A stretch of DNA of 64,000 nucleotides from Escherichia coli (GCF_036507355.1 NZ_AP027877.1); one strand, 5' to 3'; shown: positions 6,339 through 24,790, counted from the first letter of the stretch. Numbers and translations are program-made. The notes: generated by a model from the sequence alone, not told the origin.

Positions 6339-6412
6339 GCGGGCGTAGTTCAATGGTAGAACGAGAGCTTCCCAAGCTCTATACGAGGGTTCGATTCCCT
6401 TCGCCCGCTCCA
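6339..6412 (+). tRNA. glyU: tRNA-Gly (anticodon CCC)
   Basis: 74-nt sequence GCGGGCGTAGTTCAATGGTAGAACGAGAGCTTCCCAAGCTCTATACGAGGGTTCGATTCCCTTCGCCCGCTCCA with cloverleaf and CCC anticodon. Confidence 0.97.
6390..6412 (+). repeat. attL core: 3' end of glyU (23 bp), direct repeat of 10585-10607
   Basis: TTCGATTCCCTTCGCCCGCTCCA occurs identically at 6390-6412 and 10585-10607. Confidence 0.85.
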
Positions 6413-6546
6413 TGACCTTTCTTAAAGTACTCCAACCTACTGAATCCTAAGGGATACGGCTTTAAGCCTTCCGCTAGTTTTACTCACTGTAACCAACACT
6501 GTAACTAAATTTGTTGAAATAGTGAGCAGACTTAAGATCTCAGTAC

Positions 6547-8178: not shown

Positions 8179-8179
8179 G

Positions 8180-8234
8180 GATGACCATAGGCGATGACCA
8201 TAGGCGATGACCATAGGCGATGACACTTGCTACT
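8180..8234 (+). repeat. tandem 13-bp iterons (GATGACCATAGGC x3 plus a variant GATGACACTTGCTACT)
   Basis: Three perfect head-to-tail copies starting one base after the integrase stop; the variant unit recurs at about 8391-8410. Confidence 0.8.
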
Positions 8235-8293
8235 ATTCCTATGGTCCCCTTTGTGGTCCTATGTGGTCCTGTGTGACCCTTTGTGTGGTCATG
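8235..8293 (+). repeat. cluster of TGGTCC/TGTGGTC short repeats
   Basis: ATTCCTATGGTCCCCTTTGTGGTCCTATGTGGTCCTGTGTGACCCTTTGTGTGGTCATG: about five degenerate copies of one motif. Confidence 0.7.
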
Positions 8294-8330
8294 TTTTGAC
8301 TCATAGTTTTCACTACTTGTCAAGCATATT

Positions 8331-8353
8331 TAATACGACTCACTATAGGGAGA
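8331..8353 (+). promoter_or_regulatory. bacteriophage T7 RNA polymerase promoter (exact 23-bp class III consensus)
   Basis: TAATACGACTCACTATAGGGAGA read directly, predicted +1 G at 8348; followed by a TCTCTCTCTGTCTCTCTC tract. Confidence 0.85.
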
Positions 8354-8584
8354 AGGGACACAAAAAGTTTTCTCTCTCTGTCTCTCTCTATGATGACACT
8401 TGCTACTACTTCAGGTAGCTTTAACTCTAACCGTAACTTATCGCATCCTTTCAGGGGCGGGATGACCAATTACAGACACCAAGCGTTCTACTTAAAATGA
8501 ATGCTTCCTGTGTGCTCTGGGTCAGTCGATAAGTGAATAGCCTTAGACATCATATTAATTATGGTCTCTAACCCCTACAGGGGC

Positions 8585-8729
8585 TTAACTTTAAGTATTA
8601 ACTTATAGTCTACTTAAAGACACAATTAAAGATTAACTTAAAGTATTAAATTATAGATTAATTAAAGACCAATTAAAGAGTAACTTTAAGTATTAACTTA
8701 TAGTCTACTTAAAGACACAATTAAAGATT
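8585..8729 (+). repeat. AT-rich iteron array with two ~48-bp direct repeats (TTAAAGA/TTAAAGAC units)
   Basis: AACTTTAAGTATTAACTTATAGTCTACTTAAAGACACAATTAAAGATT at about 8587-8634 and 8682-8729; preceded by CCCCTACAGGGG at about 8570. Confidence 0.8.
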
Positions 8730-8920
8730 GACTCTAAGGGAATACCTTAAGAGGTGATGATATTCATAATAATCAATCACCAAACCTATAGGTCTCCTCA
8801 AGGCATTACCCAGAAGCTAACTGTATGGCCCTGTATGGTCCTGTACGCCATTCTTTAGGATGCCATGTAGTTTCGTATGGCCTGATGCCTAGCGTGGCTC
8901 AGAGACCCTCCCAGTAGTAA

Positions 8921-8945
8921 ATCAATACGACTTACTAATAGGAGA
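8921..8945 (+). promoter_or_regulatory. degenerate T7-like promoter (putative)
   Basis: CAATACGACTTACTAATAGGAGACA: 18 of 23 positions match the T7 consensus, same orientation, about 230 bp upstream of the 9158 ORF. Confidence 0.45.
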
Positions 8946-9157
8946 CACACTCCGAACCACTCACCACGTGTCTCTCAAAGTTCCACCTCTCGCGCTTCAC
9001 CATACAGTAGCTCCGCACAGCTACGACACAATCATTCATTCAATCTCAAAGTCATTCTGTTTGCATCCTGTTGTCCTGCTGGTCTCCCTTCGCTTGGGGA
9101 CTTTGAGTGGGCCAGTAGGGGGCGGTTTAGTGTGCATATTTAAAAGGTAACCAAGCA

Positions 9158-9721
9158 ATGAACAATAAACATAAACATGCAGGTCATATTATCACTATTG
9201 AAGGCCACAGCTTTAAGTCTAATGAGTCTGGCATGTGGAATCTTACAGAAATATGGAAAATCCTCGGATTACCTAACAATAAGCTACCCTCTCAGTGGCG
9301 CGGCAAGGTAACAAAGAGGCTCACCGACATGCAAAAAATGCACGTCGAGAAGATTGGTATTGAAAGCATAACCTACGCAGACAAACAGGCTACCCTCAAG
9401 TATGCAGGATGGGTCTCTGAAGATTTCGAGGACATGGTCTATGCAGCCTTTGAGGCTATCCTTGAGATGCCTGAAGTTGCCACGGTCGTTGCTAATAAGA
9501 TGGTCGAACTTGGCTATCACGCTGAAGCTGAGCTATTGGAACGTCATAAGGACGACTATAGAGAAGCTATGCAGACCCTTAAAAAGATTGGTAAACGTGT
9601 TGACGGCAGGAAGCCTGAGCGCATCTACAAGGCCGTACTTAACGGTAATCTGACGAAATTTCAAGGGTTATCCATGATTTCTCGCAGCAGTGTCTGGTAC
9701 GCCCGAACAGTGAATCTATGA
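9158..9721 (+). CDS. hypothetical protein, possible KilA-N-like N-terminal domain
   Basis: 187-aa ORF with AAGGTAA upstream; N-terminal IITIEGHSFKSNESGMWNLTEIWKILG...AGWVSEDFEDMVYAAF is reminiscent of KilA-N/APSES-type domains (tentative, from recall). Confidence 0.5.
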   Translation: MNNKHKHAGHIITIEGHSFKSNESGMWNLTEIWKILGLPNNKLPSQWRGKVTKRLTDMQKMHVEKIGIESITYADKQATLKYAGWVSEDFEDMVYAAFEAILEMPEVATVVANKMVELGYHAEAELLERHKDDYREAMQTLKKIGKRVDGRKPERIYKAVLNGNLTKFQGLSMISRSSVWYARTVNL

Positions 9722-9844
9722 TGGCTATCGATCACGATAGATGCCAGCGATCAATTTCAGGTTACCGATCGAAACAAACGATCAGCACGATGGTTGCAAT
9801 CGGATATCATATTGACACTTGTCTGACATCCTGAAGGTATCAAT

Positions 9845-10318
9845 ATGTTTGGGCTTTTTAAGAAAAAGGCAAAAGCGGAAAGGTGTTATGATGTAACACG
9901 CATTCAATACGAGCTGGTTGTAATGTCATCTAAGCTGATAAAAAAACAGACCGATATGTTCAAAGTAATAAAAGGGGAGCGAGAGGAGGCTTTAGGAGAC
10001 CCTTTATTATCAGCAGGGTATATAACGCCATGGGTCATTGGATATTGCACTGGTCTCCTGGATGCAGTGACTCAGACGGAGGCTAACAGGATGGCATTTA
10101 CATCAGAAATGCTTGGGCTTCTTTTTGCTGCAGTTTTCGGTGATGATAAGTCTCTTGAGGCCATGGGAACTTATATAGCCTGTAACGAAGCCTCCTCACC
10201 AGACCATGGATTTCATGTTACGTATGAGCTTTATATGTCTGGTCTAGCGAAAGCGTTTAATGAGGTATGTGAGGATAAACCTGCGATAGGACTTCTGAAC
10301 TATTTAATGCAGGATTGA
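9845..10318 (+). CDS. hypothetical protein (157 aa)
   Basis: ORF with no recognisable motifs; TTGACA at about 9810 upstream; last ORF before attR. Confidence 0.45.
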   Translation: MFGLFKKKAKAERCYDVTRIQYELVVMSSKLIKKQTDMFKVIKGEREEALGDPLLSAGYITPWVIGYCTGLLDAVTQTEANRMAFTSEMLGLLFAAVFGDDKSLEAMGTYIACNEASSPDHGFHVTYELYMSGLAKAFNEVCEDKPAIGLLNYLMQD

Positions 10319-10584
10319 AAATTTCCCACAAAAATCTCAGTGCCTATCTAACAGTAATAACCCTGCAACATTCCCCCGTATACCTCCAGAAGTTATCCAG
10401 AAGCCGAAGTAGGTATCCTGTCATGTATTTGAATCATCAAAGTTGTTCGTTCTATTCCTCTTTAGGGAATATTACAGCCCTACAGCCTTGACCAGAGATC
10501 ACTTGATGTGTAACCATAACTGTAACCAAAAGGATTCATCATCCTTTAAGAAACAATTGGTTAGTGAGTGATTGTCTTCGATAC

Positions 10585-10607
10585 TTCGATTCCCTTCGCC
10601 CGCTCCA
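10585..10607 (+). repeat. attR of the 4.2-kb element (also proximal att of the next islet)
   Basis: 23-bp copy of the glyU 3' end; flanking sequence diverges from the tRNA. Confidence 0.85.
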
Positions 10608-10771
10608 AACTCAAGTCTCCTGAAGTCTACCAAACTCAATTTTTCCTTGATAAATCAGCAGTTATAGCTTTCTATTAGTCTATTGAACTCAATTGTACTC
10701 CCCCAGGGTCAAGCTCAATGTGGGGGTATGGATGGGGGTATAATTGTACCCCCTGCTGAGAGGTACCCCCA

Positions 10772-11998
10772 ATGAAGCTGACTGCTCGTCAGGTTGAAAC
10801 TGCGAAACCCAAAGAGAAGCCCTACAAACTGGCCGATGGTGGTGGGCTTTACCTGCTGGTTAATCCCAACGGTAAAAGATACTGGCGTCTCAAATACCGT
10901 TCGTTAGGTAAAGAGAAGCTGCTCGCTATTGGCGTTTATCCCGATGTTTCTTTAGCTGAGGCCCGAAGTAAGCGTGAGGATGCTAAAAGAACATTAGCGG
11001 CTGGCAACGATCCCTCTCTTGAACGAAAAATTGAGAAACTTAGTCGTCAACAAGACGCTGAAAACTCGTTTGAGGCTATCACACGGGAGTGGTATCAGCG
11101 TCGCTATGACCGCTGGTCTGTCTCCTACCGCGAAGAAATGCTGAGAACCTTTGAGAAAGATGTATTTCCTTATATCGGTCACAGGCCAATCAAAGATATC
11201 AAGCCGATGGAGTTGCTTGCAGTTCTTTCAAAGATAGAAGCACGAGGGGCAACAGAGAAAGTCCGCAAGGTTCGTCAGCGTTGTGGAGAGGTCTGGAAGT
11301 ATGCCGTTGTGACTGGGAGGGCCGAGTACAATCCAGCACCTGATCTAGCCAGCGCCGTGAGTCCTCATGAGAAAGAGCACTATGCTTTTTTAACCCAGGA
11401 TGAATTGCCTGAGTTTCTTCGGACTCTGAACGCCTATGCCGGTAGTGTGCTTGTTAAGATTGCGATGCAATTGCTCATTTTAACAGGAGTAAGGCCAGGG
11501 GAGTTGAGGCAAGCGGAGTGGCAGGAGTTTGATTTTGAGAAAAAGGTTTGGAATGTACCAGCGGAACGTATGAAAATGCGCCGCCCTCATCTTGTTCCAT
11601 TATCAAGCCAGGCAATTGACCTGCTTAATCAACTTAAACCCATAACGGGAGCAGGAGCGTTATTATTCCCAGGACGTAATAATCCTAAGAAACCGATGAG
11701 CGATATGGCATTGACTGTGTTGGTCAGGCGTATCGGCTATGCCGGGCGCGTTACAGGGCATGGATTCCGCCACACGATGAGTACCATTTTGCATGAGCAG
11801 GGATTCAACTCGGCCTGGATTGAGTTACAGCTGGCTCACGTCGATAAGAACTCAATTCGTGGGACGTATAACCATGCTCAATATTTGGAAGGTCGGCGGG
11901 AGATGATGCAGTGGTATGGAGATTTCATCGGTCAAGCAGGCAAATCCGGATCATCGCTAGCTTATGCAGCTATTAGCTTGACTGCTGAATTAGAGTGA
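10772..11998 (+). CDS. P4-type tyrosine integrase
   Basis: 408-aa ORF; N-terminus MKLTARQVETAKPKEKPYKLADGGGLYLLVNPNGKRYWRLKY typical of P4-family integrases; HGFRHT and Y-containing C-terminal box; sits 165 bp after the tRNA-derived repeat. Confidence 0.9.
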   Translation: MKLTARQVETAKPKEKPYKLADGGGLYLLVNPNGKRYWRLKYRSLGKEKLLAIGVYPDVSLAEARSKREDAKRTLAAGNDPSLERKIEKLSRQQDAENSFEAITREWYQRRYDRWSVSYREEMLRTFEKDVFPYIGHRPIKDIKPMELLAVLSKIEARGATEKVRKVRQRCGEVWKYAVVTGRAEYNPAPDLASAVSPHEKEHYAFLTQDELPEFLRTLNAYAGSVLVKIAMQLLILTGVRPGELRQAEWQEFDFEKKVWNVPAERMKMRRPHLVPLSSQAIDLLNQLKPITGAGALLFPGRNNPKKPMSDMALTVLVRRIGYAGRVTGHGFRHTMSTILHEQGFNSAWIELQLAHVDKNSIRGTYNHAQYLEGRREMMQWYGDFIGQAGKSGSSLAYAAISLTAELE

Positions 11999-12008
11999 GA
12001 AGGGGCAA

Positions 12009-12056
12009 GTTGAGCCTCTTCGCTGAGAAGAGGCTCAACGTGAACCTATTTTTTTG
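12009..12056 (+). terminator. intrinsic terminator after integrase
   Basis: GTTGAGCCTCTTC-GCTG-AGAAGAGGCTCAAC hairpin followed by a T7 run. Confidence 0.7.
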
Positions 12057-12153
12057 GGAGTTAATACTTTTTGCAATTTTTTTTTTCGTGCCGTTGGATG
12101 TAAAGATCTGTGGGGGTTAGGGAAGAAAATCATGCTATGTTAGTCTTTGAGGA

Positions 12154-13131
12154 GTGAGTCAAAATGTTATAACTTTTTCAAAGAGGCGTTACATCGTGAA
12201 AGTCGTTTTTAATGTTAATGGTAAAAAAGTTCCGCTCAAATCTCTGCAATATATAAGTAAAGCAAATCAACTCGAAGTTATGCGGAATTGGTTTTTTGAG
12301 AATTTTGAAGATCCCGCGAACTCTTGCCCGTATGAATCCCGTGAAGGCGGGTATGCTTACATTTATGGGGGCCCATACGAAGCAAGTGAAGAGTTGCAAG
12401 CGATGTTTGAAGGACACGTGAAATTTGATTATATCCAAGAATTAGTCAATGAATTACAAGAACAGTGCTATGAATGGTCTGGTAATTCAAATAATATTAA
12501 TGATTGGTACGATGAAGACTTGTATGATGCTGTTACATCTTCTGAACATCCTTTTTCTAAGTTCGTTGAAAGCATTGATGGAATAAAATTGCTGTCTAAA
12601 GGCGAATTTAAAGATAAACAAAAAGATCATCTGCTTAGCATCCTATATATTAATGTCATTACAGCCCTGGAAACACTTTATGTTGAGTTATTTATTAACT
12701 CTATAGATAAAAACGACTCATATCTTGCTGACTTTATAGAAAAAGGTAAGACGGAATTTAAGGTAAATAAAGGAATATTGGCTTTGCCATTCAAAGGAGA
12801 AACTATTGAAAACATGAGGGCGCAATTAATTAAGGTAATTAAAGAGCATTTGATTAGTGCAAGTTGGCATAGTACAAACAAAGTTGTAGGACGTTATAAA
12901 GCTACATTTGATATAAAAGTACATAAAGAGTGGCCAATAGATGTGATCGAAATAGCAACTCAAAAGCGTAATCATTTAGTCCATCGTGGCGGGAAAGATA
13001 AAGAAGGTAATTCGGTAGTGATTACTGAACAGGATTTAGAAATGTTGCTGGATCACGCACAATCTCTTGGAGAAAAATTGTTTGATAGCCTTGAGGTGGC
13101 ATTACAGAAAAAAGATGAGAATGAATTTTGA
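12154..13131 (+). CDS. hypothetical protein with C-terminal HEPN-like R-x4-H motif (putative abortive-infection protein)
   Basis: 325-aa ORF; C-terminal KRNHLVHRGG fits the HEPN R-x(4-6)-H signature; AT-rich gene inside an integrase islet. Confidence 0.5.
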   Translation: MSQNVITFSKRRYIVKVVFNVNGKKVPLKSLQYISKANQLEVMRNWFFENFEDPANSCPYESREGGYAYIYGGPYEASEELQAMFEGHVKFDYIQELVNELQEQCYEWSGNSNNINDWYDEDLYDAVTSSEHPFSKFVESIDGIKLLSKGEFKDKQKDHLLSILYINVITALETLYVELFINSIDKNDSYLADFIEKGKTEFKVNKGILALPFKGETIENMRAQLIKVIKEHLISASWHSTNKVVGRYKATFDIKVHKEWPIDVIEIATQKRNHLVHRGGKDKEGNSVVITEQDLEMLLDHAQSLGEKLFDSLEVALQKKDENEF

Positions 13132-13182
13132 GTCTCGGGGTAGGTTGATAGTGCTACCGATAACGAGCAAGCAAATGATACT

Positions 13183-13202
13183 CGGCAGGCAGTGCCTGCC
13201 GG
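13183..13202. terminator. bidirectional hairpin between convergent genes
   Basis: CCGGCAGGCA-G-TGCCTGCCGG perfect inverted repeat between the 13131 and 13207 stop codons. Confidence 0.55.
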
Positions 13203-13206
13203 AGGA

Positions 13207-14910
13207 TTACTTTTTACTTCCAAATTGAATGCCGAGAAGTTTATTCTCTGCTTTATCGCCACGTAGAGTAAGAACAATTTTTGATTTCAGTTCTAACATT
13301 TCGATTTCAGATAAAGTTGTTTCCATAGCATTAAAGTTTTCAGTGTTTAAAGATGCTATATATTGCTTTCCGCTTCGTTTTAATGACTGATTGACAAATG
13401 AGAACCATCTTGCGCGAACACCTGGATCTATATCAGCAAAAAGACGGTTATCATGCCATAGCATATCCATGGCATGGTTTTCACCACATGTAAATACTAA
13501 CCAGTCAAAGCATAATATCCTAGCATCATTGATCCCATCCGAATCATCACCCTCGATTTGGATGCTTAGATCATAACGAATTTTGTTGTCACCAGTATTA
13601 ACATCCAAAACTATTCCTGCTGGTACCCTTGGGTACATTATTTCTGCGAGCTCAGCAAAAATTTTATCGTATTCTGAAAGAGGATTTGTAGAAGCATAGT
13701 TTACCGCTAATCTGTCTTGTTCAACTTTTCGTTCTCTTAGATTTTGAGCTTTCTGTTGAAGGTTAATAGAAAAATTTAAATAATCATGTAACCTTTCTTT
13801 TTCTTCTTTAAATTCAGCTAGTTGTCTAGCTATGACTGCGTATTCATCAAATGCTTTCTTGCCTTGCAGGGATTCCAAATATGAATCACGTAATGCTGAA
13901 ATATCCTTAATGTCAATTTTAAGAGATTCAATTTCTAACAAAAGTTTTACTTTATCATTTTCAAGTCTTTTCTTTCTGTTAAAAGATAATGATTTGTGAA
14001 AATTTTCAACTGACTCAAAATGGGCCAATGTTTCTGGCTTGAAAATCTCTTGTAAGCCATTGTACAGTTCAAGAAGCTCTTCTCTTGAAATGTCAGGGTG
14101 TTCTAATAAAGTTTTTTCTATATTATTTACTTTAAATTCAGCTATATTTTTGTTTTTTTCAACTTCTCGTAATTTTATAGTTAAACTGTTTGTTTCATTC
14201 TCAATAGCTCTGTATTGCTCGTGAACTTGAAATGCATTCAGTTCATCCTGCAGTCTTGGGATCTCTCTTTCTAGCCACTCATAGCGTACTTTAGGTTGAG
14301 AGCCTGCTCTAAACATGTCTTTTAGAATATCATCGTCTTGCCAATTTTTTAGCGATTGACTTACTTTATCCAGCTCTTGCTTATTATTTCTTTTAGATAA
14401 TATTAAATTATGATCTATACCGAGAAGAAATGCGGTACGAAGCAATGCTTCAAAGTCTTGCTCCTTTTTTGTCCTAGTTGGACTGATGCAGTCATCTCTG
14501 GTATATCGCGAAAAACGCTTAAATAAAGATCTGAATGATAAATACGGAATGTTATTCTCAAGATTAAATATTCCTATTTTATCTAATAAATCTTTAAATG
14601 CTTTTAAAGATATTGTTTTGTCATTTAATAATAATTTTTTTCCATTGCCCGTTCTAGATATTAAGTACTCAACTCCATTATGAGAAAAAAGTAAAGAGAA
14701 CCACCAATCTGGAACTGCTGAAGTTAATTTTTTATCAGCATTAGCTCCTAAACAATGTTGAATGAGACCGAGAATAAGTGTCTTACCGACTCCGTTACTA
14801 CTGCCTTCTTTTTCTTTAGAGCTATCACCAATGATCAACGTTAGTCCTGTATCATTGAAATGCACTGGATGAAAAGTTGGCTGATCGCAAGTTAAGCGAA
14901 TTAACTTCAT
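13207..14910 (-). CDS. SMC/ABC-type P-loop ATPase with long coiled-coil region (putative anti-phage ATPase)
   Basis: 567-aa ORF; Walker A GSSNGVGKT near the N-terminus; long K/E-rich heptad-like middle; start codon abuts the stop of the upstream 101-aa gene. Confidence 0.65.
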   Translation of the reverse strand: MKLIRLTCDQPTFHPVHFNDTGLTLIIGDSSKEKEGSSNGVGKTLILGLIQHCLGANADKKLTSAVPDWWFSLLFSHNGVEYLISRTGNGKKLLLNDKTISLKAFKDLLDKIGIFNLENNIPYLSFRSLFKRFSRYTRDDCISPTRTKKEQDFEALLRTAFLLGIDHNLILSKRNNKQELDKVSQSLKNWQDDDILKDMFRAGSQPKVRYEWLEREIPRLQDELNAFQVHEQYRAIENETNSLTIKLREVEKNKNIAEFKVNNIEKTLLEHPDISREELLELYNGLQEIFKPETLAHFESVENFHKSLSFNRKKRLENDKVKLLLEIESLKIDIKDISALRDSYLESLQGKKAFDEYAVIARQLAEFKEEKERLHDYLNFSINLQQKAQNLRERKVEQDRLAVNYASTNPLSEYDKIFAELAEIMYPRVPAGIVLDVNTGDNKIRYDLSIQIEGDDSDGINDARILCFDWLVFTCGENHAMDMLWHDNRLFADIDPGVRARWFSFVNQSLKRSGKQYIASLNTENFNAMETTLSEIEMLELKSKIVLTLRGDKAENKLLGIQFGSKK

Positions 14911-15216
14911 TTAACTTTCCTTATTTTTTAATTTGTCATAATTGCAACAGATTGGCATTATTCTGTTTTCATTATCTAGCGTTATTTGTTTGATGCAAAA
15001 AAGAATGTCTACGGCAAGTATAAATTGTGTAAAAGAGGGCGTGATTATCGTTGATTTATTTTTCCGCTCTATTTTTGTCCATAGTTCTTCTATGGATACC
15101 GGTCCATCAATTAACGAACGGATGTATCCTGCAATCGCAATTAGGGAGTTACTAAACCTAACATGCTTATGTGGCAGAAGCATTGCTTGGATGTTCATAA
15201 GCATCACATGTCTCAA
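14911..15216 (-). CDS. small hypothetical protein coupled to the ATPase
   Basis: 101-aa ORF whose stop (14911-14913) is immediately followed by the ATPase ATG (14908-14910), suggesting translational coupling. Confidence 0.5.
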   Translation of the reverse strand: MRHVMLMNIQAMLLPHKHVRFSNSLIAIAGYIRSLIDGPVSIEELWTKIERKNKSTIITPSFTQFILAVDILFCIKQITLDNENRIMPICCNYDKLKNKES

Positions 15217-15390
15217 AATATTTAGCTAAAATTAACTCTGCAGCAAATCGATAACTCGCGACCGCACTTGTGGGAACTTGCGGGGGAAGGAGTTTATCTA
15301 TCATCCAAGTATATCTTAAATCTGCATAATTGTGGTTATCTTCAGTTATCGCCAATTTACTTTTTGCATAAGTATCTCTAACTTCTTGAG

Positions 15391-16173
15391 CTATAGTTTG
15401 TTCAAGACCACAAGACCATTATCAACAGAATCTAAAAATTCATTTATCAAATATAGTTGATAGCTAAAAGATTCCAGCCTGCTTTTTATTGGTTTTGTAA
15501 TACCATTTATTTTTATTTTATCTTCGAAGTCCGGGGCTGTTTCACTTAAAAAATTCATGGGTGAAGAAGATTTTTGTGCTAAAAAAGTCAATACTTCACC
15601 AACAGCTCGAGTATCTGTAAAGTCTAAATTAACCTCAGGAATGAAACCTACAATATCTTGCTTTTCACCCTCGGATAATGACATAAACTTTTGAAGGAGC
15701 TCCATCCCACCCATTGCACCTGCGTGATTAAGACTTTTACTGATTGCAAGTGTATTTAATGAAAGTCCAACAGGTGCTGGAATACCCTTGAAATAATCAT
15801 TCATTACAAAAGTATATTTTGATACTTTCCCCCATTTGGCGACTAATTTATCAAAGTCGCCAATCGATTTATTAACAGCTTCTAGCTCTTTGGTTTGATT
15901 TGAAGGTTTAGGTCCATAAACTTGGAAGTAATGAGCCTCATGAGCAATCCACCCATCATTCCCGCCATCTCCCCAGTTTCCCCAAGGGGAAACAGCTTGA
16001 AAGCCAGGAGTCGCGTATTGCATAACCTTCGAAAAAAGCGCCTGAAAACTGTCTCCCATACATTCATGTACTTTTAACCGAAAGAACTGTCTGTAGAGGT
16101 AATCTTGCTGTGTCGAACTCATTTTCCTCTCATCCATGATGAACACTTTTGATGATAATATCCTCTCATTCAT
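15391..16173 (-). CDS. hypothetical protein (260 aa), first gene of the ATPase operon, candidate effector
   Basis: ORF with WGNWGDGGNDGWIAHEAHYF segment; no confident family assignment. Confidence 0.5.
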   Translation of the reverse strand: MNERILSSKVFIMDERKMSSTQQDYLYRQFFRLKVHECMGDSFQALFSKVMQYATPGFQAVSPWGNWGDGGNDGWIAHEAHYFQVYGPKPSNQTKELEAVNKSIGDFDKLVAKWGKVSKYTFVMNDYFKGIPAPVGLSLNTLAISKSLNHAGAMGGMELLQKFMSLSEGEKQDIVGFIPEVNLDFTDTRAVGEVLTFLAQKSSSPMNFLSETAPDFEDKIKINGITKPIKSRLESFSYQLYLINEFLDSVDNGLVVLNKL

Positions 16174-16332
16174 TGTTGTAAACCTATGATTAGCAAAATT
16201 GGAGATGCTTTCACTTTAGAGTTGGTATCTAAAGGTTATAAATTATCAAAACAGGTTGTATAGATATCAAATTGAATACGATTTGACATATATGTTAATC
16301 TGATTAGTATCAGAGAAAAACAGGAGTCCTTA

Positions 16333-16683
16333 ATGTCGCTTATCCCCCTACAACTCTTCAAAAACCTCTCCGATGAAACCCGTTTGGGCATCGTGTTGCT
16401 GCTTAGAGAGATGGGAGAGCTGTGCGTGTGCGACCTTTGCACTGCGCTAGAACAGTCGCAGCCCAAGATCTCCCGTCATCTGGCAATGCTCCGGGAAAGT
16501 GGTCTATTGCTGGATCGTAAACAGGGCAAGTGGGTTCACTACCGCTTATCCCCGCATATTCCTTCCTGGGCCGCTCAGGTGATTGAGCAGGCCTGGTTAA
16601 GCCAACAGGACGATGTGCAGGCCATCGCCCGTAAGCTGGCATCAGCAAACTGCTCTGGTAGCGGTAAGGCTGTTTGTATCTAA
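16333..16683 (+). CDS. arsR: arsenical resistance operon repressor ArsR
   Basis: 116-aa ArsR/SmtB-family protein with metal-binding ELCVCDLC and HTH. Confidence 0.9.
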   Translation: MSLIPLQLFKNLSDETRLGIVLLLREMGELCVCDLCTALEQSQPKISRHLAMLRESGLLLDRKQGKWVHYRLSPHIPSWAAQVIEQAWLSQQDDVQAIARKLASANCSGSGKAVCI

Positions 16684-16730
16684 AAAATTTGCCTGAACAT
16701 ATATGATTTTTCGAATGCGAGGTGTTCAGA

Positions 16731-17093
16731 ATGAAAAAGTTAACGGTGTTTGACCCGGCAATGTGCTGCAGTACCGGCGTATGTGGCTCAGATGTCGATC
16801 AGGTTCTGGTTGATTTTTCTGCTGATGTGCAGTGGCTGAAAGGACGTGGCGTACAGGTTGAACGTTACAACCTGGCGCAGCAGCCCATGAGCTTTGTTCA
16901 AAATGAGAAAGCGAAAGCATTCCTCGAAGCATCTGGAGCAGAAGGGCTTCCGTTACTGCTGTTGGACGGTGAAACGGTGATGGCAGGGCGATACCCAAAA
17001 CGCGCTGAGCTGGCTCGCTGGTTCGGTATACCGCTGGAGAAGGTAGGTTTAGCTCCCACCAGCTGCTGTGGTGGTAATACTTCCTGTTGCTGA
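16731..17093 (+). CDS. arsD: arsenical metallochaperone ArsD
   Basis: ATG at 16731 with GAGGTG SD; MKKLTVFDPAMCCSTGVCG with conserved Cys12/13/18. Confidence 0.9.
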   Translation: MKKLTVFDPAMCCSTGVCGSDVDQVLVDFSADVQWLKGRGVQVERYNLAQQPMSFVQNEKAKAFLEASGAEGLPLLLLDGETVMAGRYPKRAELARWFGIPLEKVGLAPTSCCGGNTSCC

Positions 17094-17110
17094 GTATGTC
17101 AGGAGGACAT

Positions 17111-18862
17111 ATGAAATTCTTACAGAATATCCCGCCTTACCTGTTTTTTACCGGTAAGGGAGGTGTAGGAAAAACTTCTATTTCCTGCGCGACGGCAATC
17201 CGCCTTGCTGAACAGGGTAAGCGGGTTTTGCTGGTCAGTACCGATCCGGCCTCCAATGTCGGCCAGGTATTCGATCAGGCTATCGGTAACACCATTCGCC
17301 CTGTGGCAGCAGTTCCTGAACTTTCCGCTCTGGAAATCGACCCGCAGGAAGCCGCCAAACAATATCGTTCCAGAATCGTTGCTCCTATCAAAGATCTTTT
17401 GCCTGATGACGTTGTTAACAGTATCAGCGAGCAGCTTTCAGGAGCCTGTACCACTGAGATTGCGGCGTTTGATGAGTTCACCGGCTTATTGACAGACGCT
17501 TCCCTGCTGACCCGCTTCGATCACATCATTTTTGATACAGCGCCGACGGGCCACACGATTCGCCTTCTCCAGCTTCCCGGTGCCTGGAGTAACTTCATTG
17601 AGAGTAACCCGGATGGTGCTTCCTGTCTTGGCCCAATGGCCGGACTGGAAAAGCAGCGTGAGCAGTATGCTCATGCGGTAGAGGCGTTATCCGATCCTGA
17701 ACGTACCCGCCTGGTTCTGGTTGCAAGACTGCAAAAATCCACGCTGCAGGAAGTCGCCCGCACCCATGAAGAACTCGCCGCAATTGGCCTGAAAAACCAG
17801 TACCTGGTGATTAATGGTGTGCTGCCTAAAGCCGAAGCTGAACATGACGCCCTGGCCGCTGCGATATGGCAACGTGAACAGGAGGCACTGGCAAATCTTC
17901 CTGCCGGTTTATCCGGGTTGCCGACAGATACCCTATTACTACAGCCAGTCAATATGGTTGGTGTTTCAGCATTGAAGGGACTGCTGGATACCCGTTCTGA
18001 GGCATTACCGCTCCCGGTAACGAACATCCAGTACACGCCTGAAAACATATCGCTCTCTGGCCTGGTCAATGATATCGCCCGCAGTGAACACGGCCTGATT
18101 ATGCTGATGGGCAAAGGTGGCGTGGGTAAAACCACGATGGCTGCTGCCATCGCCGTAAGGCTGGCGGATATGGGATTTGATGTCCATCTCACCACCTCAG
18201 ATCCCGCTGCACATCTCAGTACCACGCTGAACGGTAGCCTTAATAACCTGCAGGTCAGCAGGATTAATCCACACGAAGAAACCGAACGCTATCGCCAGCA
18301 TGTTCTTGAGACGAAGGGTAAAGATCTGGACGAAGCAGGGAAACGGCTACTGGAAGAGGATTTGCGCTCTCCCTGTACTGAAGAAATTGCCGTGTTTCAG
18401 GCCTTTTCCAGGGTGATTCGTGAAGCGGGTAAACGGTTTGTTGTCATAGATACCGCCCCTACCGGACACACGCTGTTGCTGCTGGATGCGACCGGGGCTT
18501 ACCACCGAGAGATTGCCAAAAAAATGGGGAGTAAAGGTCATTTTACTACCCCAATGATGCAGCTTCAGGATCCGGATAGAACCAAAGTTCTGCTTGTTAC
18601 GCTTCCTGAAACCACACCGGTTCTGGAAGTGGCAAACCTGCAGGCTGACCTTGAAAGAGCGGGGATTCATCCGTGGGGCTGGATTATCAATAACAGCCTT
18701 TCCATTGCGGATACGCGTTCTCCGTTGCTTTGCCAGCGCGCCCGGCAGGAACGGCCTCAGATTGAGGCTGTTAAGAATCAGCATGCTGAGCGTATAGCGC
18801 TTGTTCCGGTGCTGGCGTCAGAGCCCGCCGGTATTAAAAAGCTCAGAGAGTTGATGAGTTAA
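17111..18862 (+). CDS. arsA: arsenite-transporting ATPase ArsA
   Basis: ATG at 17111 after AGGAGG; two nucleotide-binding halves each with GKGGVGKT; about 583 aa. Confidence 0.92.
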
Positions 18863-18909
18863 TTTTTTGGCATATACAGGGCGGCAAAGTCGCCCTGTCA
18901 GGAGGTTTT

Positions 18910-20199
18910 ATGTTACTGGCAGGCGCTATTTTTGTCCTGACCATTGTTTTGGTTATCTGGCAACCAAAGGGATTAGGGATCGGCTGGAGTGCAATGCTGG
19001 GCGCGGGACTGGCTCTGATATCAGGCGTTGTGCATGTGGGCGATATTCCGGTGGTGTGGAATATCGTCTGGAACGCGACGGCGACCTTTATTGCCGTAAT
19101 TATTATCAGCCTGCTGCTTGATGAGTCCGGTTTTTTCGAATGGGCAGCGCTGCACGTTTCCCGCTGGGGTAACGGTCGTGGACGTTTGCTCTTTACGTAT
19201 ATCGTTCTGCTCGGTGCGGCGGTGGCGGCACTGTTTGCCAACGATGGTGCGGCACTTATTCTGACGCCGATAGTCATCGCCATGCTGCTGGCATTAGGGT
19301 TCAGCAAAGGCACCACGCTGGCATTCGTCATGGCTGCCGGTTTTATTGCCGATACGGCCAGCCTGCCGCTTATCGTGTCGAACCTGGTGAATATAGTCTC
19401 GGCGGACTTCTTTGGACTGGGCTTCACTGAGTATGCGTCGGTAATGGTGCCGGTGGATATTGCCGCTATTATCGCCACGCTGGTGATGCTGCATCTGTTC
19501 TTCCGCAAAGATATTCCACCGACTTACGACCTGGCTCTCCTGAAAGCACCGGCAAAGGCGATTAAAGATCTGGCAACCTTCAGAACCGGCTGGATAGTTT
19601 TAATTCTTCTGCTGGTTGGGTTCTTTGTCCTCGAGCCGCTCGGTATTCCCGTTAGCGCGATTGCGGCTGTTGGAGCTGTGATCCTGTTTGCTGTAGCTAA
19701 ACGAGGCCATGCCATTAACACCGGCAAAGTGCTGCGCGGTGCGCCATGGCAGATCGTCATCTTCTCATTGGGGATGTACCTGGTGGTCTACGGTCTGCGC
19801 AACGCCGGGCTAACCGAATACCTTTCAGGTGTGCTGAACGTACTGGCGTATAAAGGACTCTGGGCCGCAACGCTGGGTACTGGTTTCCTGACGGCTTTCC
19901 TCTCTTCCATCATGAACAACATGCCTACCGTGCTGGTTGGCGCTCTCTCGATCGATGGAAGCACCGCATCCGGCGTTATTAAAGAGGCGATGATCTACGC
20001 CAACGTGATTGGCTGCGATCTGGGGCCGAAAATTACACCTATTGGTAGCCTGGCAACGCTGCTCTGGCTGCATGTACTTTCACAGAAGAATATGACCATC
20101 ACCTGGGGATACTATTTCCGCACCGGGATCGTCATGACTCTGCCTGTGCTGTTTGTAACGCTGGCCGCGCTGGCGCTACGTCTCTCTTTCACTTTGTAA
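18910..20199 (+). CDS. arsB: arsenite efflux pump ArsB
   Basis: 429-aa polytopic membrane protein, ArsB family. Confidence 0.92.
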
Positions 20200-20211
20200 T
20201 GAGATACTGAT

Positions 20212-20637
20212 ATGAGCAACATCACCATTTATCACAACCCGGCCTGCGGCACGTCGCGTAATACGCTGGAGATGATCCGCAACAGTGGTACTGAACCGAC
20301 CGTAATTCTTTACCTTGAGACTCCACCGTCTCGCGATGAGCTGGTCAAACTCATTGCAGATATGGGCATTTCAGTCCGGGCTTTGCTGCGCAAAAACGTC
20401 GAGCCTTATGAAGAACTGGGGCTTGCAGAAGATAAGTTTACTGACGATCAGTTAATCGGCTATATGCTGCAGCATCCGATCCTGATTAACCGCCCGATTG
20501 TGGTGACACCGTTGGGAACGCGCCTGTGCCGTCCTTCCGAAGTGGTACTGGATATTCTTCCGGATGCGCAAAAAGGCGCATTTGCAAAGGAAGACGGCGA
20601 GAAAGTCGTTGATGAAACAGGTAAACGATTGAAATAA
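20212..20637 (+). CDS. arsC: arsenate reductase (glutaredoxin-coupled) ArsC
   Basis: 141-aa ORF MSNITIYHNPACGTSRNTLEMIR with catalytic Cys12. Confidence 0.92.
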   Translation: MSNITIYHNPACGTSRNTLEMIRNSGTEPTVILYLETPPSRDELVKLIADMGISVRALLRKNVEPYEELGLAEDKFTDDQLIGYMLQHPILINRPIVVTPLGTRLCRPSEVVLDILPDAQKGAFAKEDGEKVVDETGKRLK

Positions 20638-20643
20638 ATATAA

Positions 20644-20661
20644 AGGGGGCTGATGCCCCCT
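20644..20661. terminator. hairpin between convergent arsC and acetyltransferase genes
   Basis: AGGGGGC-TGAT-GCCCCCT stem-loop. Confidence 0.5.
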
Positions 20662-20671
20662 TATTCCTGCC

Positions 20672-21208
20672 TCAGAGCATACGATCTGAATCTTCTGGCA
20701 GAGTACTATTCCCTTCACCAAGTTTCATTTGCAGCAAAACCGTGTCAAGCCAGCGGCCATGCTTGAAACCAATGTCCTTTAATGTACCTATTTCAGTAAA
20801 TCCTGCGCGGATATGAAGCGCTACAGAAGCGACGTTAGCGCTGTCACCCACAACAGCAATCATCTGGCGATAGCCTTCGGACTCGGCCCATTTTAATGCA
20901 TGATCGAGCAGTGCTTTTCCGACGCCCTGTCGCTGATAAGCCGAATCAATATATATCGAATTTTCGACCGTATACCGATAGGCATGGCGTTCGCGGTAAC
21001 GGGAAATATAACAGTAGCCGATGACCGTATCGCCATGCAGAGCGACATACCATGGGAATCCTCGAGACTGAATGCTCCTCAGTCGGTTAAGCATTTCCTG
21101 CGTATCCGGAGGTTCGGTTTCGAAGCTACCTGTACCATGCAGAACATGGTGAGCATAGATATTGCGTATCGCGGTAATGTGCTGTTCTTCAGCATTAATA
21201 ATGTGCAT
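20672..21208 (-). CDS. GNAT N-acetyltransferase, phosphinothricin/arsinothricin acetyltransferase-like (ArsN-like)
   Basis: 178-aa ORF with GNAT acetyl-CoA motif QRQGVGKALL; PAT/Bar-like; located in an ars cluster, where ArsN1-type enzymes occur. Confidence 0.6.
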   Translation of the reverse strand: MHIINAEEQHITAIRNIYAHHVLHGTGSFETEPPDTQEMLNRLRSIQSRGFPWYVALHGDTVIGYCYISRYRERHAYRYTVENSIYIDSAYQRQGVGKALLDHALKWAESEGYRQMIAVVGDSANVASVALHIRAGFTEIGTLKDIGFKHGRWLDTVLLQMKLGEGNSTLPEDSDRML

Positions 21209-21332
21209 CGTGTTACTCCAGTAATGGTGTTTTACAAACTACCGGAATTCGCGACAGCAGGTTAAGTACTTAAACTTATAACCTGTATAAGCAAAAGTTT
21301 GGCTGCAGTAAATGGGGCCGTAGCCCCATCTA

Positions 21333-22034
21333 TTAGCCTGCCATTTTTGCCAGCAGAGCCGCACCCACTGGTTCTTCGTTCTGCAGTGGCGTTAATGCAA
21401 TACGCTTTGCAAACTGCTCTGCAACGTCATTTATCAGCGGCAGTTCGCGACTGGCTCGGGTTACCAGGAACGGTGAGGACGGTTTCGCAGCAGCCAGACT
21501 GCTATTGATTACCCATGCCCATGGTTCAATTTCAGCCCGACGCAAATCCTGTTGCAGGTTTGCCGCTTCCAGCACCGGTGTCGTTTCGGCAAGCGTCACG
21601 ATAATCACCTTCGTCTTCTCCGGGTCATCGGCCAGAGACTGCTGGGGACGCCGGTTAAGGTCGGATTCTTCAATCAACCACCGCTCATCTTCAGGTAATG
21701 CCTGCAATGTTTCAGGCAGGCAAATATCCAGCGTTGAGATTGCATCAGTGGATGGATCAGTTAATGGGGCATCATCTTCCAGATCAACGAATTCCCTGGT
21801 GGTGCGGTACTCATCAATCAGCAGATTCCTCGCCGCCCGATACAGCCAGGCTCGCGGATTCTCCATTTCGCAGAAACTGTCTGAATGAGCGCGGGCACGC
21901 AGGAATAGCTCTTGTAGAAGGTCTGCTGCTTTTTCGCTATCACCTGTCTTCTATGTCAGAAAGCGAGAGAGTTCGGCTTCATGTTGCTGCCAGAACACGC
22001 TCATGCAGTTGTTGAATGCCGTTACATCACTCAT
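21333..22034 (-). pseudogene. degenerate ECF sigma factor-like gene with in-frame amber stop, fused to a 3' fragment of arsA
   Basis: Minus-strand frame from ATG 22034 reads MSDVTAFNNCMSVFWQQHEAELSRFLT-stop (TAG = plus 21951-21953), then ...ENPRAWLYRAARNLLIDEYR (ECF region 2-like), ending in KVIIVTLAETTPVLEAANLQQDLRRAEIEPWAWVINSSL, which parallels the ArsA C-terminus. Confidence 0.6.
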
Positions 22035-22042
22035 ACCAGCCC

Positions 22043-22586
22043 TCAAATTTTGCTCTGATTAACCCGCCGTGAAAGTTCTTCTGCAGATTCTTTTCGTTCG
22101 CTGTAGCGATCAACGAGATAGGCTGAGTTACCTCGGGTCAGCAGAGTAAATTTCACCAGTTCTTCCATCACATCCACGATTCGGTCGTAATAAGACGACG
22201 GTTTCATTCGTCCATCTTCATCAAATTCCTGCCAGGCTTTTGCCACAGAGGACTGATTCGGGATGGTGATCATCCGCATCCAGCGGCCAAGAATTCGCAT
22301 CTGGTTTACGGCATTGAAAGACTGAGAGCCACCGCAGACCTGCATAACGGCCAGTGTCTTACCCTGCGAAGGGCGAACAGCGCCTTCTGATAACGGTATC
22401 CAATCAATCTGGGCTTTCATGATGCCGGTCATCGCACCATGGCGTTCAGGGGAACACCACACCATCCCTTCGGACCAACGAACCAGCTCGCGCAGTTCCA
22501 TGACTTTAGGATGTGAGTCAGGCGCATCATCAGGAAGAGGCAAGCCTGAGGGATTGAAGATCCGAACCTCTTCGCCCATGGCTGCA
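22043..22586 (-). pseudogene. arsH: arsH (NADPH-dependent FMN reductase), 5'-truncated by IS insertion
   Basis: ArsH-like sequence from [17 protein letters not shown] onward; the first ~42 codons of the track ORF (22587-22714) lie inside the IS element. Confidence 0.7.
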
Positions 22587-22604
22587 TGAATCGCCACGGA
22601 TAAT

Positions 22605-23417
22605 CTAGACACTTCCGAGCCGTTGATAATACTGGTTTTCATATTCTGTCGGTGACATCTGATCGCTGGAACCATGCCGACGCTTACTGTTATAAAACAT
22701 TTCGATGTAATCAAAAATATCGCTGCGGGCTTCTTCCCGCGTTCCGTAGATCTTTTTCTTTATCCGTTCGCGTTTCAACAACTGGAAAAAGCTTTCTGCA
22801 ACCGCATTATCATGGCAGTTACCGCGACGGCTCATGCTGCCCTCCAGGCCGTGTGATTTCAGGAACGACTGCCACTCATGGCTTGTGTACTGACTGCCCT
22901 GATCCGAATGAACCAGCACCTGTTTTTGGGGATTACGGCGCCATACAGCCATCAGCAGTGCGTTCAGGACAATGTCCTTTGTCATCCGGGATTGCATGGA
23001 CCAGCCGATAATTTTGCGTGAGAACAGATCAACAACCACGGCAAGATACAGCCAGCCTTCGTGGGTCCTGATGTAGGTTATGTCCGTTACCCAACGCTTA
23101 TCCGGAGCATCCGGATTGAACTGTCGCTGGAGCCTGTTGGGCGACACGATACTGGCCTCGCCTTTACGTGCCCGCGGGCTCCGGTATCCGACCTGAGCCT
23201 TTATCCCGACACGTTTCATCAGTCGCCAGACTCTGTTCACTCCGCACTGTTGCCCGCTGTCCCGCAGATCCAGATGGATTTTGCGATAACCATAGACGCA
23301 TCCCGATTCCAGCCAGAACTGTTTAATCTGCCCTGTCAGCCTCAGGTCTGCCTGATGGCGTTGTGAATGCGGCTGCTGAAGCCAGGCGTAAAAACCACTG
23401 GGATGAACATCCAGCAC
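22605..23417 (-). CDS. IS3-family transposase OrfB (DDE integrase domain)
   Basis: DDE catalytic region (WVTDITY...[10 protein letters not shown]...[11 protein letters not shown]); the true frame probably extends upstream to overlap orfA for -1 frameshift fusion. Confidence 0.85.
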
Positions 23418-23473
23418 CCGACAGAGCAGGCGAACAGGCCAGCAACAGGTGTTGTCACGGATAAAGGCGTACC

Positions 23474-23758
23474 TCAGTCGGACAGCTTTGCGAAGTACGC
23501 CGCGGCTTTTTTTAATATGTCCCGTTCGTCGGTAACCCGCTTCAGCTCTTTCTGGAGACGGCGGATCTCGGCCTGAGCATCTGACTGTTCTTTATTAGCG
23601 GAAGAATCCGGACCGTACTTCTTTATCCAGGCGTAAAGGCTGTGGGTGGTGATATCGAGACGTGTTGCAACGCTGGCAACAGAATAACCGCGATCAACAA
23701 CCTGTTTGACTGCTTCAATTTTAAACTCTTCGGGATAACGCTTACCGCTCATGGGCAC
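23474..23758 (-). CDS. IS3-family transposase OrfA (HTH)
   Basis: 94-aa ORF with HTH and leucine-zipper-like C-terminus (RRLQKELKRVTDERDILKKAAAYFA). Confidence 0.85.
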   Translation of the reverse strand: MPMSGKRYPEEFKIEAVKQVVDRGYSVASVATRLDITTHSLYAWIKKYGPDSSANKEQSDAQAEIRRLQKELKRVTDERDILKKAAAYFAKLSD

Positions 23759-23812
23759 CTCTCTTTAAGCCATCTTAAATGACTCTGAGGTGTCTGTTAA
23801 ACCCGTGGCGAT

Positions 23813-24790
23813 TCACTCTAATGCTTTTTGAGCAGCAAGTTCAAGTTCACTTTTTCCATGAAGTGCCAAAGACATATGGCATTCCGCTAGAAGGCAATAA
23901 CATTCTGTTTTTAGCGTCTGTATATCACTTTTATTTTGTAATCCATCAAATATAGTCATGGCCCTGTAAATGCTTTCAGGGGTGAACTCGTAAAGTTCTT
24001 TCTTTCCGGCTAACATTTCATCTGATAAATAATGATTCTTATATCCTTGGTCCTGCTTAGCTAATCTTACAGATCGTTCTGGTTTATGTACCGTTTGAAG
24101 GATATTATCTATAATAAATTGTGATGTATTATGTAGTTCATCAACAGGGAGATGATTACTGGCGATGAGGAAAAGGTTTTTAGCGTCGATCAACTCAATG
24201 TATAAAGTGTTCACTGCATTATTCTGGTTTATTCTTCCTGTAACGAAATAATCTGGCTTGAATCTGCTCAAGAATGAATTTTGAGATATGTGGTCATTAC
24301 AAAAATTTGTCGCAGCCATCGGATAGGTATAGAGACCATCGATTTTTTTATTTGAAATGATTTGTACTAATTCCTGATTAAGTATTAATGGATCCAGTGT
24401 ATTCAATGAAGTGGTGAAAGGGAATATAGCTATGGAATAGTCTGAAGTATTATCTTCATTAATTTTAGTTTTGAAAACCTGCCCGCTGAAACGATAACCT
24501 TTCCGGTAGATTGTTTCTATGCAGCGATCATAGCCAATTTTTTCAAAAATGCAGCGCAAAGAATAGATACATCTTGTCAGGGACTCGTCACTAACAATAA
24601 TATTTTTCCATACTGATTCGATGATCATATCTTTCAGTACAACATGACCAGCGGATTCAAGTAATACTATTAATACACCTAACTCTTTCGGTGGAATATA
24701 AACTTGCTCATTTCCTTGAGTAAGAATTCCATCTTCCGTGAGCGTTAATCCCTCAAGAAAATGATATGAGAATTTATTTTCTAAGTCCAT
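23813..24790 (-). pseudogene. ygeH: ygeH-like HilA/ToxR-type regulator (ETT2), 3'-truncated by the IS3-family element
   Basis: 325 aa with N-terminal winged-helix region; the reading frame stops on the TGA that is the first triplet of the IS terminus; K-12 YgeH is about 458 aa (recall). Confidence 0.65.

Follow-up and report, generated by a model that had tools for sequence, protein, structure and literature searches.

The arsRDABC operon of plasmid R773 represents the textbook mechanism of arsenite and antimonite efflux with arsenate reduction, and a larger module, in which a second set of ars genes faces such an operon, is already catalogued: its gene list appears in a table of pBIC1a/pKPN3-like plasmids (PMC6286996). 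Acetyltransferases have been linked to such systems as well, with arsN1 defined as the pat (phosphinothricin acetyltransferase) orthologue located in ars operons (PMC6465285, Nadar et al. 2019). Here, we describe an allele of this module in a 64,000-nucleotide stretch of the Escherichia coli genome NZ_AP027877.1 (GCF_036507355.1), hereafter the window, in which positions are counted from the first letter. An earlier reading of positions 16333-22586, made from the sequence alone, had proposed a plasmid-type arsRDABC operon with an ArsN-like acetyltransferase and a truncated arsH. The locus is very probably a mobile dual ars module in a genomic island at the tRNA gene glyU, comprising an intact arsRDABC operon, a destroyed second operon and an intact GNAT gene of the phosphinothricin acetyltransferase (PAT) family (Table 1). 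It is no new kind of system, being a decayed allele of the ars islands found at glyU in other E. coli. Genes were called from a six-frame listing of open reading frames (ORFs) combined with NCBIfam and Pfam profile scans; loci retrieved for comparison are labeled with the prefix L.

On the plus strand, arsR, arsD, arsA, arsB and arsC follow one another uninterrupted and intact (16333-20637), matching R773 in gene set, order and strand. All five proteins exceed the curated NCBIfam cut-offs with end-to-end coverage; ArsB, for example, is full length with 429 aa (model positions 2-428 of 430). The mechanical ORF call began arsD at GTG 16722 and arsA at TTG 17087, but we take ATG 16731 and ATG 17111 as the real starts because these align with residue 1 of the R773 proteins and agree with the RefSeq annotation of a near-identical genome. 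The likeness to R773 extends to the functional residues, including the ArsR metal-binding site ELCVCDLC (CVCDLC being the part compared with R773), ArsD Cys12, Cys13 and Cys18, the two GKGGVGKT P-loops, two DTAPTGH motifs and Cys113, Cys172 and Cys422 of ArsA, and ArsC Cys12, Arg60, Arg94 and Arg107; both C-terminal CC pairs of ArsD are also present. Identity to the R773 chains in the PDB is 87.8% for ArsA, 89.0% for ArsD and 94.3% for ArsC. Moreover, an inverted repeat, ATCAAAT...ATTTGA, precedes and overlaps the promoter, is kept in copies only ~82% identical, and is the presumed ArsR operator. Taken together, the full-length matches, the R773 identity, the kept residues and the promoter with its inverted repeat establish a real, complete operon of the R773 type, in agreement with the sequence-only reading. 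It differs from R773 in being chromosomal, within a tRNA-Gly island, whereas R773 is a plasmid, and in being a diverged allele whose DNA is closest (94%) to plasmid copies from Klebsiella, Raoultella and Serratia; across the module, identity is ~94% to IncF-type plasmid copies of these genera and of Leclercia.

Because this conservation is complete, the operon would in all likelihood act like that of R773, expelling As(III) and Sb(III) through an inducible, ATP-driven pump and reducing As(V). Until As(III) binds to it, ArsR would occupy the promoter's inverted repeat and repress transcription, ArsC would reduce arsenate to arsenite with glutathione and glutaredoxin, ArsD would hand As(III) or Sb(III) to the ArsA ATPase, and the ArsAB pump would export arsenite or antimonite. 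The convergent arsC and GNAT genes are separated by a GC-rich hairpin that resembles a minus-strand terminator and probably serves both.

The minus strand at 21333-22034, whose remnants went unrecognized in the sequence-only reading, is not spacer. There, a second arsA gene (arsA2) survives as a 3' stump that is joined in frame to the 5' stump of a gene for an extracytoplasmic function (ECF) sigma factor. At its C-terminus, the 177-codon ORF spanning the fusion (21333-21866) aligns with the final 86 positions of the ArsA model (109.7 bits), and at its N-terminus with SigZ-type ECF sigma factors. BLAST comparison with related loci shows that a 2,058-bp deletion removed the whole of arsD2 along with most of arsA2 and the 3' end of the sigma gene, so that position 13627 of the E. 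coli Combat11I9 locus (L003) is joined to 15686; in the genome NZ_OZ197100, which has the same deletion, RefSeq annotates both stumps as pseudogenes. The ancestral layout, convergent to arsRDABC, is arsR2-arsH-ECF sigma-arsD2-arsA2 with GNAT between arsA2 and arsC, and it is seen intact in the K. variicola plasmid pKP187 (L002) and in E. coli strains Combat11I9 (L003) and 14EC033 (L011), as well as on numerous plasmids from Klebsiella, Raoultella and Serratia. Its products measure 107 aa for ArsR2 (with a C-terminal CCxxxxxC), 237 aa for ArsH, 181 aa for the sigma factor, 120 aa for ArsD2 and 585 aa for ArsA2. The GNAT gene and arsH are hence not two loose accessory genes but belong to or border a destroyed operon, the second, convergent one that the mobile module would originally have held. 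Three independent lesions have struck it, namely the 2,058-bp deletion, a nonsense codon in the sigma stump, and an insertion sequence (IS) of the IS3 family with an adjacent deletion, and for this reason the second operon is almost certainly non-functional here.

Table 1. Features of the ars module and its surroundings in the window. Positions count from the first letter of the 64,000-nucleotide stretch.
Feature	Position	Strand	Description
tRNA-Gly(ccc), glyU	6339-6412		Island integration site
Direct repeat of the last 23 nt of tRNA-Gly(ccc)	10585-10607	+	Left attachment site of the ars-bearing island
Tyrosine integrase of the ars-bearing island	10772-11998	+	Pfam Arm-DNA-bind_3, Phage_int_M, Phage_integrase
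Three-gene ABC-3C (ABC-three-component) defence-like system	13207-16173	-	Pfam DUF2326 and MC6; PADLOC PDC-M68B, 244 bits; RefSeq annotation
ars promoter region	16262-16310	+	Sigma-70-like TTGACA-16-TAGTAT at 16283-16310
arsR	16333-16683	+	PRK10141, 228.9 bits (cut-off 97); As(III)-sensing repressor
arsD	16731-17093	+	NF033727, 133.7 bits (cut-off 90); metallochaperone
arsA	17111-18862	+	TIGR04291, 942.4 bits (cut-off 650); pump ATPase
arsB	18910-20199	+	NF011980, 721.9 bits (cut-off 457); arsenite/antimonite efflux permease
arsC	20212-20637	+	NF007456, 300.9 bits (cut-off 242); glutaredoxin-type arsenate reductase
GC-rich hairpin	20640-20664		AAGGGGGC-tgat-GCCCCCTT; between convergent arsC and GNAT
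GNAT	20672-21208	-	Intact, 178 aa, convergent with arsC; phosphinothricin/methionine-sulfoximine/arsinothricin acetyltransferase family
GNAT upstream region	21209-21332	-	Palindrome CTTATACAGGTTATAAG at 21275-21291; GC hairpin directly after the arsA2 stop codon
arsA2 3' stump	21333-21625	-	About the last 96 codons of 585
Deletion junction	21625/21626		2,058 bp lost; 2-bp microhomology
ECF sigma 5' stump	21626-22034	-	136 of 181 codons, stop at codon 28, in-frame fusion to the arsA2 stump
arsH pseudogene	22043-22584	-	Last 180 of 237 codons; ArsH model positions 52-219 of 219
IS3-family insertion sequence	22587-23815	-	1,229 bp, terminal inverted repeats TGAATCGCCACGG
IS orfB (rve)	22605-23417	-	338.7 bits (cut-off 160)
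IS orfA (helix-turn-helix)	23474-23758	-
ygeH (ETT2 regulator), 3'-truncated	23816-24790	-	~400 nt of the 3' end gone

The intact sigma gene of Combat11I9 (L003 15550-16095), between arsH and arsD2, encodes regions 2 and 4 and a vicinal Cys-Cys end (..SPVCCHKKMN), with no anti-sigma gene nearby in the intact operon. Its product could be an arsenite-responsive sigma factor; a literature search for ECF sigma factors within ars operons found nothing relevant. This point bears, like the substrate of the ars-linked PAT-like enzyme, on the ancestral module and not on the window, where only stumps of the second operon survive.

The GNAT protein belongs, by sequence and predicted fold, unquestionably to the phosphinothricin/methionine-sulfoximine/arsinothricin acetyltransferase (PAT/MAT/ArsN1) family. 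Pfam GNAT domains are found, its sequence matches in the PDB are all PAT-like chains (E=7e-52 downwards), and its AlphaFold2 model (mean predicted local distance difference test score, pLDDT, 92.8) gives Foldseek template-modeling (TM) scores of 0.93-0.96 to the best matches and 0.91 to 5WPH, a structure of PpArsN1 from Pseudomonas putida KT2440. Grouping with unrelated acetyltransferases, the outcome that would have undone the ArsN-like assignment, is therefore not what was observed. The 'ArsN-like' label nevertheless holds only at the level of this family. The protein falls below the NCBIfam equivalog cut-offs for ArsN1 family B (146.1 vs 210 bits), ArsN1 family A (93.6 vs 170) and PAT (NF040502, 114.9 vs 300), which makes it a member of the wider superfamily only and explains why the annotation pipeline PGAP names it just 'GNAT family N-acetyltransferase'. 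Its closest solved relative is the PAT PSPTO_3321 of P. syringae with L-phosphinothricin (46% identity), followed by Brucella and Sinorhizobium PATs, and PpArsN1 (5JTF, 5WPH, 6M7G) reaches 33%, level with BAR and YncA/MddA. The PATs of P. syringae (9IGK, 9IGL), Brucella ovis (5DWN) and S. meliloti (4JXQ), at 43-46% identity and TM 0.93-0.96, also score near the window protein on the ArsN1 family B model (136-144 bits), and they come from genera other than Escherichia; a literature search on 9IGK and PSPTO_3321 found nothing relevant.

Furthermore, homologues are for the most part found away from ars genes. Among 80 loci with relatives of 47-73% identity in species-representative genomes, ars genes lie within 10 kb in one, Pantoea sp. 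IMH, as judged by tblastn with ArsA, ArsB, ArsC, ArsD, ArsH and ArsR; the ArsC query was of the glutaredoxin type, so that clusters of Acr3, ArsM or thioredoxin-type ArsC lacking arsH would escape this count. Chromosomal homologues without ars linkage, such as those of Pectobacterium and Pantoea (59%) and a Citrobacter gene (~70% identical) situated between pgaA and the glyU-actS pair, score alike on the ArsN1 family B model (about 131-147 bits). The ars-linked copy of 14EC033 shares 84% identity with the chromosomal gene of Citrobacter and only 70% with the window gene, so ars-linked and unlinked copies interleave.

In a 15-sequence alignment, Arg72, Arg74, Tyr77, Glu82 and Tyr86 of the window protein are invariant or nearly so. 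We take them to correspond to BAR Lys78, Arg80, Tyr83, Glu88 and Tyr92, residues whose numbering and roles were reportedly set out by Christ and colleagues in 2017. The methyl-pocket position is Thr156, aligned approximately to BAR Val161, which equals PpArsN1 Val158 under an assumed offset of +3. It appears somewhat probable that the enzyme N-acetylates an amino-acid analogue of the class that inhibits glutamine synthetase. Its substrate would be a glutamate or methionine analogue, that is, phosphinothricin, methionine sulfoximine or possibly arsinothricin, and selectivity for arsinothricin seems doubtful.

The region upstream of the GNAT gene points to its origin. A palindrome of the form CTTAT-N7-ATAAG stands 83-86 nt before the GNAT ATG both in ars-linked copies and in chromosomal loci of Pectobacterium, Pantoea sp. 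IMH, Phytobacter, a Klebsiella sp. and a soil metagenome-assembled genome (boxes at, for example, L008 5916-5932 and, in Pantoea sp. IMH, L015 9916-9932). A divergent gene for a LysR-type regulator abuts the box in all five chromosomal loci, and a major facilitator superfamily (MFS) transporter gene overlaps the GNAT stop codon in Pectobacterium and Pantoea sp. IMH. The classic LysR operator has the form T-N11-A, which the palindrome fits; when compared with the ArsR2 operator (ATTTCTATA...TATAGAAAT) and the arsR1 inverted repeat, it proved unrelated to either. No homologue of the LysR gene occurs in the window or in related ars loci. Because the LysR-type box is kept and the LysR gene is absent, GNAT is most simply seen as a gene taken over, together with its operator but not the regulator, from a LysR-GNAT-MFS locus for detoxification by 'acetylate and export'.

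With such an origin, GNAT transcription is probably not controlled by arsenic. In 14EC033, moreover, two opposite-strand genes, for a TauE/SafE exporter and a winged helix-turn-helix regulator, part arsA2 from GNAT and yet ~100 nt upstream of GNAT is still kept, which makes it probable that the gene has its own promoter and transcription unit. Loss of the arsR2 promoter should accordingly not by itself silence it, although expression may be low without the activator.

Two loci outside the module touch on how GNAT and ars genes come together. In Citrobacter (L004 6001-6645; the same in L005 and L006), 34 bp separate the end of the ~70% identical homologue from the 3' end of the glyU tRNA-Gly(ccc) gene, by actS, which is also where the ars island sits in the E. 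coli chromosome; this may be coincidence. The idea that GNAT arrived with a relic of the glyU attachment site was dropped, as the sequences downstream of it in Citrobacter and in the window are without obvious similarity by eye. In Pantoea sp. IMH (L015 9006-15156), arsR-arsH and a convergent arsC-arsB-arsR come straight after the LysR-GNAT-MFS locus. Two arsRBCH clusters acquired by horizontal transfer have been described in that strain (PMC5155266), of which this is one, and the locus may illustrate a route to GNAT-ars linkage.

The foremost rival account takes the GNAT protein for a functional ArsN1-type arsinothricin N-acetyltransferase, a part of the arsenic-resistance system that extends its protection to arsinothricin. 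ArsN1 family B is indeed its best NCBIfam match, the R-x-R, Tyr and Glu substrate and catalytic residues are kept, as is the fold, and an ars-operon pat orthologue is what the definition of arsN1 describes (PMC6465285). However, both ArsN1 scores fall short of their cut-offs and are equaled by unlinked chromosomal homologues, identity is higher to the phosphinothricin-bound PAT than to PpArsN1, and Thr156 replaces the PpArsN1 valine at the methyl-pocket position, insofar as the BAR alignment and the assumed offset hold. Location is equally two-sided: GNAT lies between the two ars operons, adjoining ars genes, in every module copy examined, even in copies 70% identical, yet it is convergent to arsRDABC (PpArsN1, also ars-adjacent, differs in this), separable from arsA2, and preceded by a LysR-type box instead of an ArsR1 or ArsR2 inverted repeat. 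Its wider clade is not ars-associated, with one linked locus among 80, and one ars-linked copy is nearer to the Citrobacter non-ars gene than to the window gene. We therefore regard the ArsN1 account as unlikely.

Several points nonetheless weigh against seeing GNAT as a PAT-family gene that merely travels with the ars genes under its own control. Plasmid and chromosomal copies with a mutual identity of 70% keep it at the same position inside the module, which suggests selection for ars linkage and would fit arsinothricin resistance. Additionally, PAT enzymes are promiscuous, SvPAT having similar affinity for phosphinothricin and arsinothricin (PMC6465285), and failing the ArsN1 thresholds is thus compatible with arsinothricin acetylation. 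Finally, no consensus sigma-70 promoter was detected directly upstream of GNAT at the scan threshold, and the gene could be silent. A tentative further proposal, which we hold to be rather improbable, is that the ars-linked proteins form a third clade of the PAT/ArsN1 family, recruited from a LysR-GNAT-MFS locus because they inactivate arsinothricin or a related organoarsenical or antimetabolite. If true, a ready-made arsinothricin resistance gene would already be circulating on Klebsiella, Enterobacter and E. coli plasmids. The substrate of the ars-linked enzyme would be relevant should arsinothricin be developed as an antibiotic. For annotation, the GNAT gene should not be automatically labeled ArsN1, and the strain is to be described as having a complete high-level arsenic and antimony efflux operon without a functional arsH.

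The comparison with known ars islands that the sequence-only reading had called for places the window as a decayed allele of glyU islands such as those of NZ_OZ197100 and Combat11I9. Of 5,426 complete E. coli genomes, 290 contain arsD-arsA DNA, which is found at 230 places on chromosomes and 77 on plasmids; DNA of the second operon is present in 109 genomes, and two have the deletion allele, counted where the match covers at least 80% of the query. IncFIB(K) Klebsiella plasmids of the pKPN3/pKP187/pBIC1a type share gene set, order and orientation with the window, with ~94% DNA identity across 16346-22582 apart from the deletion; unlike them, the window has lost 2,058 bp of the second operon, arsR2 and the arsH 5' end, and carries the sigma nonsense codon. 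The arrangement at glyU is common to five genomes. Those of NZ_OZ197100 (isolate 23S01245-7), Combat11I9, L26 and 23CRST011 share with the window the site between actS and glyU, the integrase, the ABC-3C trio and the ars module, but keep arsH, arsR2 and the distal island genes intact, whereas the window has an IS-associated deletion reaching into ygeH and an extra tandem islet of 4.2 kb. NZ_OZ197100 is the sister genome, with 99.86% identity over window positions 10585-22584 and 100% from the junction of ABC-3C and arsR (16000) to 22584; it has the 2,058-bp deletion, but its arsH and arsR2 are intact and the IS is absent. A diverged dual module, ~82% identical, is carried by E. coli 14EC033 (L011 2212-2904, 8088-9343), with a glutathione-synthetase-like gene upstream of arsR and the TauE/SafE and winged helix-turn-helix genes inserted between GNAT and arsA2.

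These comparisons also bear on whether the whole cluster, arsRDABC included, is a silent relic that adds nothing to the arsenic phenotype conferred by the core chromosomal arsRBC. Decay of the island is plain from the 2-kb deletion, the nonsense codon, the IS-associated deletion and the loss of the right attachment site. Nevertheless, the five arsRDABC genes are full length and free of frameshifts, with functional residues, promoter and presumed operator all intact, and the identity of the sister genome, 100% from arsR to the arsH breakpoint and 99.86% over the 12 kb from the attachment repeat, indicates recent common descent. A relic of this kind is thus very improbable.

The third lesion concerns arsH. 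Compared with intact alleles, the remnant lacks the first 57 codons, including the N-terminal LYGSVRERSYS loop. Loops of this type bind the FMN phosphate in the flavodoxin-like NADPH:FMN reductase fold. A full-length ArsH, the NADPH:FMN oxidoreductase and methylarsenite oxidase, with this loop is not encoded here, and its loss marks the remnant as a pseudogene. The 5' truncation proposed in the sequence-only reading is thereby borne out, since only part of the ArsH model is matched; its cause, the IS, had not been identified there. Homology to intact islands ends at 22584 (L001 12585), two orphan bases follow, and 22586, where that reading ended its cluster, is the exact IS edge. The IS3-family element has terminal inverted repeats, an orfA with a helix-turn-helix and an orfB with an rve domain in overlapping frames, and multiple identical copies in genomes, with full-length, 100% identical copies present elsewhere in E. 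coli. No target-site duplication was found at its ends, which is consistent with an IS-associated deletion, and its far side abuts an internal position of ygeH (window 23816, L003 20573). These two observations imply that an IS-associated deletion took out the distal island genes, part of ygeH and the arsH 5' end, as well as arsR2 together with the promoter and operator of that gene. A scan for outward-facing promoters at the IS end found none at its threshold. That a functional truncated or hybrid ArsH is made is barely conceivable, for although an uninterrupted 223-codon ORF (22043-22714) runs from a start within the IS (22714) into the remnant, which alone scores 344.8 bits on the ArsH model, the 57 missing codons include the FMN-phosphate loop, the substitute residues are IS terminal sequence in a non-coding frame, and the native arsR2 promoter is deleted. 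The disrupted ygeH encodes a HilA-family regulator of the E. coli type III secretion system 2 (ETT2); in Combat11I9, ygeH is full length but frameshifted.

The surroundings are those of a tRNA-integrated genomic island, with a tyrosine integrase beside the tRNA gene and a direct repeat of the tRNA 3' end. From 10585 onward, the gene order is integrase, a hypothetical gene, the ABC-3C trio and the ars module, and syntenic E. coli loci carry an integrase annotation at 10772-11998. The 23-nt repeat has no third copy elsewhere within the window, from which it follows that the right end of the island is lost. The ABC-3C trio, consisting of a DUF2326 component (matching the PADLOC candidate PDC-M68B), Middle Component 6 and a third component, belongs to the same island as the ars genes and lies immediately upstream of arsR. 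As the sequence-only reading had proposed, the cluster sits between a defence islet and an ETT2 remnant, here the ABC-3C trio on one side and ygeH on the other, and its suggestion of a mosaic island fits the GC content, which is 31-38% across the defence genes and climbs to 50-55% across the ars genes. Over 15500-24500, Rfam at permissive E-values gave nothing meaningful (two sub-threshold chance matches), and Tandem Repeats Finder gave no repeats. Ahead of the ABC-3C system (region 12154-16173), a 325-aa ORF shows a sub-threshold match to a HEPN/RES N-terminal domain. The otherwise near-identical NZ_OZ197100 lacks the extra 4.2-kb islet (6413-10584), which lies in tandem at glyU and is bounded by the tRNA 3' end and the 23-nt repeat. 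The ORFs of this islet comprise one for a protein of 543 aa with a phage-integrase domain at its C-terminus, one with a weak likeness to KilA-N, and an unassigned one of 157 aa.

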